IMG/VR virus record: IMGVR_UViG_3300045988_111617
Source of the DNA: a virus
Length of the DNA stretch: 64,000 bases
Strand: one strand, 5' to 3'
A program made the position numbers and the translations under genes. The stretch's first letter is position 1. Each line of letters starts with the position of its first letter. Shown one piece after another: positions 56,715 to 57,788 of this stretch. The notes below the pieces were generated by a model, which searched no databases, was not told the DNA's origin, and worked only from the letters and a program-made list of their open reading frames with translations.

Positions 56715-57788
56715 ATGACTTATCAAGAAGAAATTGATGCTTTGAGAGATAAAATCTCAAAGTACGAAGAATTCCTTGAGAAGGTAATGGATGGACCTTT
56801 CATGGAAAGTGTTGTCATCTCTCAGTACAATGGACTTTATCGAGTTATGGTAAATGGTAATGAGGTAATCATACCAAAATCACCTAAACTTGATGAAAAC
56901 CCAAAGACAGGAGACAAGGTAATGGTAAACAAGAATATGATTATAAGTATTCTCCCAGAAGAACTTGAGAAACCTGTCAAGCCTGTAGAGTTTGAACGTA
57001 TCAAATGGGAGCAGATTGGAGGTCTCAAGAGCCAGATTTCACAGATAAGGGATGCTATAGAACTACCTATAAAACATCCTGATTCTCTCAAGAGAATGGG
57101 TCTTGAACCATCAAGAGGAGTTCTTCTTTATGGTCCTCCAGGATGTGGTAAAACTATGGTAGCCAAGGCTATTGCATCAGCATTCCTTGATGGTGCTGAG
57201 TTAAATCCAGACTCTTTTATTTATTTGAAAGGTGGAGAAATGCTCAGTCCATATGTTGGTGTAACTGAGAATAATATCAAGAGTATGTTCTCAAGGGCAA
57301 GACAGAACTACAGAGTAAGGAAACAGAGGTCAGTCATATTTATTGATGAAGCAGAAGCTGTCCTTAATGCAAGAGGCAGTAGAAGGTCATCAGATGTAGA
57401 CCTCACCATTGTTCCTACATTCTTGAGTGAACTTGATGGATTTGAAGGTAATTCTACTTTTATAATCCTTGCTACCAACTTCAAGGATGCTCTTGACCCA
57501 GCAATCATAAGACCAGGAAGAATTGACCTTAGGCTTGAAATTTCAAGACCTACAGTTGAGGATGCAGAAGATATTTTCAAGATATATCTTAAAGGCAAGC
57601 CTGTATCTGGAAGTGTTGATAAGCTGGCTAAGAGTATGTCTAAGGAAGCGTACAGCAGATTTAATGGAAAATTGTCTGGTGCTCTTATAAAGGGTATTGT
57701 AGACAAGGCTTCCTACTCCATCATCAAAGAAAGAAATGGAGAACTATCTGAACCTATCTTAACTAAAACAATCAAAACATGGGAATAG
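56715..57788 (+). CDS. PAN/Rpt/ARC-like proteasomal-type AAA+ ATPase: N-terminal coiled coil + OB fold + AAA module
   Basis: OB pattern VISQYNGLYRVMV...PKTGDKVMVNKNMIISILPEE; WEQIGGLKSQISQIRDAIELPIKHP...GVLLYGPPGCGKTMVAKAIA (Walker A), VIFIDEAEAV (Walker B), ILATN sensor, PGRIDLRLEI Arg finger; AGGAGG RBS 7 nt upstream. Confidence 0.75.
   Translation: MTYQEEIDALRDKISKYEEFLEKVMDGPFMESVVISQYNGLYRVMVNGNEVIIPKSPKLDENPKTGDKVMVNKNMIISILPEELEKPVKPVEFERIKWEQIGGLKSQISQIRDAIELPIKHPDSLKRMGLEPSRGVLLYGPPGCGKTMVAKAIASAFLDGAELNPDSFIYLKGGEMLSPYVGVTENNIKSMFSRARQNYRVRKQRSVIFIDEAEAVLNARGSRRSSDVDLTIVPTFLSELDGFEGNSTFIILATNFKDALDPAIIRPGRIDLRLEISRPTVEDAEDIFKIYLKGKPVSGSVDKLAKSMSKEAYSRFNGKLSGALIKGIVDKASYSIIKERNGELSEPILTKTIKTWE

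Follow-up and report, generated by a model that had tools for sequence, protein, structure and literature searches.

What is a proteasomal ATPase doing in a phage whose presumed hosts have no proteasome? We address this question for a stretch of 64,000 nucleotides (nt) of viral DNA, IMG/VR record IMGVR_UViG_3300045988_111617, here called the window. At 56715-57788 the window encodes a 357-amino acid (aa) homologue of the ARC- and PAN-type proteasomal ATPases, which consists of a coiled coil, an OB fold and an AAA module and has no 20S-docking tail. Discussion of proteasomal ATPases is normally confined to settings with a 20S core. The phage is crAss-like, its host is predicted to belong to the Bacteroidota, and Bacteroidota are not known to have proteasomes. 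Our analysis suggests, with a probability of roughly 60%, that the protein is a ring-forming AAA+ unfoldase of the ARC/Mpa branch that acts independently of a proteasome, probably in association with the membrane and early in infection. Comparison loci (contigs from metagenomes and IMG/VR, GTDB genomes and the phage crAss001) are labelled L followed by a number.

Domain architecture of the phage unfoldase

We examined the integrity of the unfoldase gene. The open reading frame (ORF) runs from ATG to stop at exactly the positions given in an earlier sequence-only reading of the window, and all motifs quoted there were found. The motif stretch of the protein reads IGGLKSQISQIRDAIELPIKHPD...GVLLYGPPGCGKT, and the C-terminus reads IKTWE. 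The gene is under purifying selection: comparison with three relatives of about 94% nucleotide identity gives a ratio of nonsynonymous to synonymous substitution rates (dN/dS) of 0.14-0.20. Together, the intact motifs and the low dN/dS indicate that 56715-57788 is a functional gene. Its assignment to the AAA family is far beyond chance because the protein matches Pfam AAA at 2e-31, the NCBIfam model pup_AAA at 9e-74 and the PAN models at 2e-60.

An AlphaFold2 model built with the family alignment (pLDDT, the per-residue confidence score, 80.7) shows an N-terminal helix, five strands, a linker, an alpha/beta AAA domain and a four-helix lid (domain boundaries in Table 1). The lid helices span residues 281-292, 301-316, 322-339 and 346-355; they form the small helical subdomain that, as stated in the sequence-only reading, completes the AAA module. 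The N-terminal helix displays a clean a/d heptad pattern with hydrophobic residues at Y3, I7, L10, I14, Y17, L21 and V24, and aligns with the coiled coils of PAN, Rpt4 and Mpa. It is followed by a Gly-Pro hinge that is at least 90% conserved in family alignments; P28 aligns with the hinge proline of Archaeoglobus fulgidus PAN (2wg5, wild type, versus 2wg6, the Ala mutant).

The AAA module begins by residue 96. Its large subdomain carries a Walker A motif (GPPGCGKT, residues 140-147), a Walker B motif (VIFIDEAEA, 206-215, with the acidic pair DE at 211-212), a pore-1 loop (LSPYVGV, 176-184, with PYVG at 179-182), an ARC-type pore-2 signature (RGSRRSSDVDLTIVPTFLSELDGFE, 220-244), the sensor-1 residue N255 and the arginine fingers R266 and R269 within IRPGRID. 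The SGA motif of the classical clade lies at 321-323. In a 33-member family alignment GPPGCGKT, PYVG, DEAE, N255, R266/R269 and SGA are all invariant or nearly so, most of them invariant.

We compared the model with the PDB by Foldseek. The top 50 matches were Rpt1-6 and Mpa chains, in alignments of about 360 columns that span the whole protein. Generic OB folds (RsgA, eIF1A) gave similar scores in the architecture comparison. Profile searches of the N-terminal domain were selective: below an E-value of 0.1, the family profile matched solely the N-domains of proteasomal ATPases (PAN 2wg6 at 1.5e-5, then Rpt4, Mpa 3m9b, and PAN 6he8 and 3h43). These matches required the family profile, and the N-terminal 104 aa searched against the PDB as a single sequence returned only noise (IHF). 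The N-terminal coiled coil and OB-fold segment recognized in the sequence-only reading are thus borne out by the model and by the profile matches.

Proteasomal ATPases of known families carry recognizable C-terminal tails in our controls. A tail of the form hydrophobic residue-Tyr/Phe-any residue (HbYX) is present in 71 of the 73 archaeal PAN control ORFs (as MFV, MFA, MYG or QYA), and bona fide actinobacterial ARC ORFs end in GQYL. In contrast, the C-termini of all 33 family members lack an HbYX or GQYL end, and none has a penultimate Tyr or Phe. The TWE end, noted earlier in place of a canonical HbYX motif, was confirmed, and the same lack extends through the family. Tails also vary among cellular proteins: ARC homologues without GQYL occur in Corynebacterium, Demequina and Actinotignum genomes (L001, L005 and L032).

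Relationship to ARC/Mpa and PAN/Rpt

Which proteasomal ATPase does the phage protein most resemble? The top NCBIfam model was pup_AAA (TIGR03689; 249 bits, residues 47-297), followed by the PAN models PRK03992 and TIGR01242 (205 and 193 bits, residues 4-350), although these scores lie below the curated cut-offs of 504.75 bits for pup_AAA and 500 bits for PAN. Over the 33 family members, pup_AAA also had the lowest best E-value of all models. Placement in the FtsH or ClpX clades was rejected: ARC and PAN scored 249 and 205 bits, whereas FtsH scored only 133 bits, confined to the AAA region, and ClpX was at noise level (E-value 0.006). In the PDB profile search, Mpa scored 264 bits over one AAA domain and Cdc48 352 bits; the Cdc48 scores are high because they are summed over two target domains. 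Membership of the Cdc48/VAT group was likewise rejected: the phage protein has a single AAA module and not an N domain followed by tandem D1-D2 modules.

Motifs and identity point in the same direction as the best NCBIfam model. The Cys-bearing Walker A motif is the ARC form. The pore-2 stretch RGSRRSSDVDLTIVPTFLSELDG corresponds to a 23-residue stretch of actinobacterial ARC (Streptomyces; L014). The family pattern (RGSxxSSDVxxTIVPxFLxExDG) and the ARC pattern (RGxGxSSDVExTVVPQLLxExDG) have RGSxxSSDV(E/D)xT(I/V)VPxxLxExDG in common. Over the AAA module, the protein is 46% identical to ARC, 40% to PAN and 35-39% to Cdc48 D1/D2.

We built a bootstrapped neighbour-joining tree from 232 AAA columns, using 73 archaeal PAN genes from metagenome contigs and ARC genes from GTDB genomes as references and leaving out Rpt sequences. 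The family was monophyletic (90% bootstrap). Its sister group was a set of viral ARC-like proteins with two OB domains (68%), and the two together joined actinobacterial ARC (61%), apart from PAN (90% monophyly) and from Cdc48. An ARC-like gene with two OB domains was also seen on a contig binned as Nanoarchaeota (L017, a metagenome-assembled genome).

Taken together, profiles, signature motifs and identity, with moderate support from the tree, show an AAA module that is ARC/Mpa-like rather than PAN/Rpt-like. The PAN/Rpt signature proposed in the sequence-only reading therefore holds in part: the protein is of the proteasomal-ATPase type and its single-OB layout is PAN/Rpt-like, but its AAA module resembles that of ARC/Mpa. 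Between an archaeal, an actinobacterial and a eukaryotic source, which that reading had named as candidates, the tree favours the actinobacterial ARC side over archaeal PAN, with the eukaryotic Rpt proteins left out of it. The 357-aa protein is best described as a reduced ARC derivative.

The family is large. Members scoring above 330 bits fall into at least 120 clusters at 90% identity. The compact full-length form (350-430 aa) accounts for at least about 23 clusters at 50% identity within the 150 best representatives. In the collections searched, the family is restricted to viral and metagenomic contigs. Its best PHROG match, PHROG 3757, is annotated as "unknown function", and we found no description of the family in literature searches on crAss-like or Crassvirales AAA proteins or proteasomes, phage proteasome-associated ATPases, phage unfoldases and DUF1360. 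In two independent metagenome contigs a frame change at the junction of N-domain and AAA module (L095, 8001-9102, +1; L096, 7391-8490, -1) splits the gene into a coiled-coil-OB ORF of about 100 aa and an AAA ORF of about 250 aa. This arrangement may reflect a true split of the gene, programmed frameshifting or gene decay.

Partner genes, peptidases and gene setting

Two genes follow the unfoldase gene in overlapping frames. The first (partner 1) overlaps the end of the AAA gene by 10 nt and encodes a small protein with an invariant C-x-C-G motif; it had no Pfam, PDB or PADLOC match. The second (partner 2) overlaps the first by 11 nt and encodes a membrane protein with an invariant HCP(Y/W)C...HY motif and a basic C-terminal tail. 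Pfam DUF1360 (PF07098) matched partner 2 at 14.5 bits, below its gathering threshold of 21 bits; the match is sub-threshold in five of six members and is centred on CPYC.

We searched contigs of 20 kb to 429 kb, obtained by exact-protein look-up and from IMG/VR, with hidden Markov models (HMMs). Both partners lie 3' of the AAA gene in every locus with a family AAA protein, on crAss-like and jumbo phage contigs alike. The loci (the window, L081, L082, L084, L085-L097, L103 and L125) amount to about 13 distinct lineages. The partner 2 HMM matched at 1e-34 to 1e-66 in all of them, with 45-58% identity across distant loci, and at 1e-9 to 1e-15 beside the viral two-OB ARC-like genes. A reverse look-up from the membrane protein recovered the order AAA, small protein, membrane protein in three of three cases. 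The membrane gene is also adjacent in LR756500.1 (462 kb, 43.5% identity), the sole GenBank phage with the AAA gene. The real conserved neighbours of the unfoldase are thus these two downstream genes, which the sequence-only reading had missed; it had named small zincin-like proteins as possible partners. PADLOC returned only generic AAA matches (IetA, TRIP13) and nothing for the two partners, and a known defence or anti-defence system was rejected.

Are the partners functionally tied to the ATPase? They might be merely co-transcribed early genes with unrelated roles, the AAA protein acting as a soluble, stand-alone disassembly chaperone. ARC in Corynebacterium acts without a 20S proteasome, some actinobacteria, Corynebacterium, Demequina and Actinotignum among them, have GQYL-less ARC homologues, and crAss001 has a small gene and a DUF1360-annotated gene without an AAA gene. 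Nevertheless, we consider this explanation unlikely. The trio is invariant down to about 45% AAA identity, across genomes of 95 kb to 429 kb and with overlapping start and stop codons, and it is unusual for phage genes of unrelated function to stay together so persistently. The membrane gene moreover lies 3' of the more distant two-OB viral ARC-like genes as well.

All close relatives of the protein (PAN, Rpt, Mpa and FtsH) feed peptidases. Could it be the unfoldase half of a two-part protease that feeds host ClpP, a chamber of the FtsH/Lon type or phage peptidases? The zincin-like ORFs to which it had been paired do exist: two HExxH ORFs lie 3.5 kb upstream on the opposite strand (Table 1), one of them matching a PHROG annotated as "protease". 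A homologue of the 108-aa ORF directly follows the unfoldase cassette in L093 (9753-10136). However, that homologue is the exception: otherwise the HExxH ORFs co-occur with the cassette only in near-identical phages, and the proposed pairing is not upheld by co-conservation. They are also small single proteins that do not belong to chamber-forming families. An HExxH motif in the membrane ORF of L108 was dismissed as spurious, as it lies in an over-extended, low-complexity N-terminus. A search for HslV/20S-like or other chambered peptidases had been suggested earlier. We scanned 55 window ORFs with Pfam and detected no chambered peptidase: matches to the proteasome, HslV, ClpP and Lon families were all lacking. 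The same held for seven genes conserved next to members of the extended family. With an HbYX or GQYL tail in none of the 33 members, a two-part protease seems improbable.

The window belongs to a crAss-like phage: it matches Pfam Crass_capsid at 2e-215 as well as crAss tail-ring, hub and cargo families, and its portal and terminase DNA resembles that of cr116_1, cr111_1 and IAS virus. The unfoldase gene lies in a + strand block that starts near 53.7 kb and also holds a TROVE gene, whose product is 67% identical to Gp96 of Bacteroides phage crAss001. In crAss001 (MH675552.1; L166, 3560-4262 in locus coordinates), a small Gp98 gene and an overlapping membrane Gp97 gene, annotated as DUF1360, lie directly upstream of TROVE and no AAA gene is present. 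The gene pair thus occupies a place comparable to that of the window cassette, but homology of partner 2 to this Gp97 was not supported (hhalign probability 0.4%). Transcriptomics of crAss001 identified the TROVE gene and the DUF1360-annotated gene just upstream as early genes (PMC8375218). In the window, no terminator-like site was found on the + strand between the unfoldase gene at 56.7 kb and about 62 kb, and a scan for sigma-70 promoters gave nothing above chance. Because the TROVE homologue of crAss001 is early and no terminator-like site intervenes up to about 62 kb, it is reasonable to infer that the cassette is expressed early, in an operon with the TROVE gene.

This setting bears on another explanation, in which the membrane protein is holin-like and is extracted or unfolded by the AAA ring to time lysis or permeabilisation together with the nearby glucosaminidase. 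The size, the three hydrophobic segments and the basic C-terminal tail of partner 2 would suit a holin, and a glucosaminidase gene with a hydrophobic N-terminal segment lies 0.3-3.7 kb downstream of the cassette in the window, L089, L103 and L251. Yet the glucosaminidase is not universal and most family loci have none, the membrane protein matched no holin family, and by synteny the block around the cassette corresponds to the early genes of crAss001, not to late or lysis genes. We regard a holin role as very unlikely.

Other AAA genes occur nearby. The TROVE-vWA gene and the second AAA gene of the window may form a separate AAA-vWA module. An AAA gene is also paired with a TROVE-like vWA gene (DUF2828/DUF7788) in L082 (9192-11942), and a homologue of the second, 483-aa AAA protein is found in L098 (5522-7087). 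Phages with the cassette often have further classical AAA ATPase genes close to it, as in L247/L248 (2347-3552) and L249 (2377-3402 and 4696-5972); in one case an AAA gene encoding 401 aa directly precedes the family gene. The window also has 14 tRNA genes, one structural-block ORF with a weak match to Pfam Cpn10 (GroES-like, 2.2e-5), four ORFs matching homing-endonuclease families (NUMOD/I-HmuI-like) and three ORFs with BACON domains.

Table 1. Positions in the window of the unfoldase gene, its domains, its two partners and the surrounding features.
Feature	Position	Strand	Basis or remark
Unfoldase gene (coiled coil/OB/AAA; ARC/PAN-type proteasomal ATPase homologue without 20S-docking tail)	56715..57788	+	ATG-to-stop ORF, 357 aa
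N-terminal coiled-coil helix, residues 3-25	56721..56789	+	AlphaFold2 helix; heptad check; alignment to PAN, Rpt4 and Mpa coiled coil
Gly27-Pro28 hinge between coiled coil and OB	56793..56798	+	Conservation in family alignments
Single OB-fold domain, residues 30-79, five strands	56802..56951	+	AlphaFold2 strands
AAA large (alpha/beta) subdomain	57000..57548	+	Walker A/B, pore loops, sensor-1, Arg fingers
AAA small lid subdomain, four helices, end IKTWE	57549..57785	+	AlphaFold2 helices
Partner 1, small 111-aa protein, charged helix-prone N-terminal half	57779..58114	+	Homologue directly 3' of AAA gene in every family locus
Partner 2, 129-aa membrane protein, three hydrophobic segments	58104..58493	+	HMM matches in all family loci
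Lineage-specific downstream genes in overlapping frames (not core)	58490..59813	+	Myb/HTH-like 92 aa; glucosaminidase; 136 aa with hydrophobic N-terminus
Glucosaminidase-domain protein, N-terminal hydrophobic segment	58708-59403	+	Between Myb/HTH-like ORF and hydrophobic 136-aa ORF
TROVE/Ro60-like and vWA protein (469 aa), then 81-aa ORF, then second, divergent classical AAA ATPase (483 aa)	59963-63011	+	PHROG 10440 (483-aa ATPase)
Two small HExxH proteins, end of structural block	52542-53260	-	121 aa (PHROG 15610 "protease"); 108 aa (PHROG 1233)
tRNA-Lys(ttt), directly upstream of cassette	56532..56606	+	ARAGORN
Array of 12 tRNA genes	49568-51304	-	
tRNA-Ile, anticodon TAT	63358-63432	+	

Proposed function and comparison with known systems

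How might a proteasome-independent, membrane-associated unfoldase of the ARC/Mpa branch work? Its ancestor would be an ARC/Mpa-branch ATPase, of which only a single coiled coil, a single OB domain and a single AAA module were kept, while the 20S-binding C-terminal domain and docking motif were lost. Six subunits would form a ring in which an OB ring sits above an ATPase ring. Paired coiled coils would capture a substrate or an adaptor, and the Tyr-Val-Gly pore loops would use ATP to thread the polypeptide without delivering it to a proteasome. The membrane protein may tether the ring at the inner membrane or regulate it, and the small protein may serve as adaptor or regulator. Expressed early, the module would remodel or remove host or phage proteins. 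Such proteasome-independent action would resemble that of ARC in Corynebacterium, which has no 20S.

Several points weigh against this proposal. The early, DUF1360-annotated Gp97 of crAss001 is present without an AAA gene, and it is not detectably homologous to partner 2. Partner 2 could instead be a substrate of the ring, or its gene could be an early gene in its own right. Synteny and overlapping frames point to co-inheritance and probable co-translation rather than to physical contact. The early timing is extrapolated from a relative, crAss001. The grouping with ARC is only moderately supported (61% bootstrap, from a distance method and a tree without Rpt sequences). The peptidase scan covered 64 kb of a genome of roughly 104 kb and phage ORFs only. 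That no family member was seen in 185,579 GTDB species genomes, where the best matches were actinobacterial ARC proteins at 34-48% identity, comes from a scan whose patterns were biased to GCGKT-containing proteins.

A more specific form of the proposal is possible, and we advance it tentatively. The cassette could be a hitherto undescribed, phage-specific machine, an ARC-derived hexameric unfoldase tethered to the inner membrane by the CPYC membrane protein, with the CxCG protein as a Pup-like adaptor that binds the coiled coils through the charged, helical half at its N-terminus. Its targets in early takeover would be membrane or defence proteins of the host, which it would extract or unfold in the absence of a proteasome. 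Such a "split FtsH without the protease" would have arisen when viruses captured an actinobacterial proteasome ATPase and reduced it, and would then have spread to phages of proteasome-less hosts.

The family is a large, virus-restricted branch that shed all proteasome-docking features and kept a substrate-capturing N-ring and motor under purifying selection. Its carriers are abundant human-gut crAss-like phages and jumbo phages. It provides a natural test case for an ARC/PAN motor acting alone, and it points to two uncharacterised partner proteins. It may also identify an early host-takeover function in the Crassvirales, in which most early genes have no known role, and it documents the transfer of a proteasome component out of an ARC-like lineage into phages whose presumed hosts have no proteasome.

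The nearest relatives for comparison are the viral two-OB ARC-like ATPases (470-535 aa; for example L098, L104, L105, L108, L109 and L139 from IMG/VR, some on contigs longer than 400 kb). They share the ARC signature, the lack of a GQYL tail and a downstream CP(Y/I)C membrane gene with the family. They differ in having two OB domains and in keeping part of the ARC C-terminal extension, and the small ORF between their ATPase and membrane genes shows no detectable homology with the CxCG protein.

ARC/Mpa and the phage protein share the order coiled coil-OB-AAA with a hinge residue, the GPPGCGKT motif and the pore-2 signature. However, ARC has two tandem OB domains and a coiled coil of about 75 residues, whereas the phage protein has one OB domain and about 23 residues of coiled coil. 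ARC has a C-terminal domain and a GQYL tail; the phage protein has neither and ends directly after the lid. It is also encoded in phages of presumptive Bacteroidota and is linked to a membrane-protein gene. The window ORFs contain no Pup, PafA or Dop Pfam families, and the downstream small protein lacks a C-terminal GGQ or GGE.

PAN and Rpt1-6 are closer in layout. They have a short coiled coil, a hinge proline, a single OB domain, one AAA module and a similar total length; the PAN model aligns over residues 4-350, and Rpt chains are among the top Foldseek matches. In contrast to them, the phage protein has no HbYX tail, is only 40% identical to PAN over the AAA module and falls outside the PAN clade.

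FtsH, finally, has N-terminal transmembrane segments and a C-terminal M41 zinc peptidase within one polypeptide, both of which are absent from the phage protein. Both proteins are classical-clade AAA ATPases, and if the proposed tethering holds, both would be inner-membrane unfoldases, with the anchor of the phage protein supplied by a separate polypeptide.

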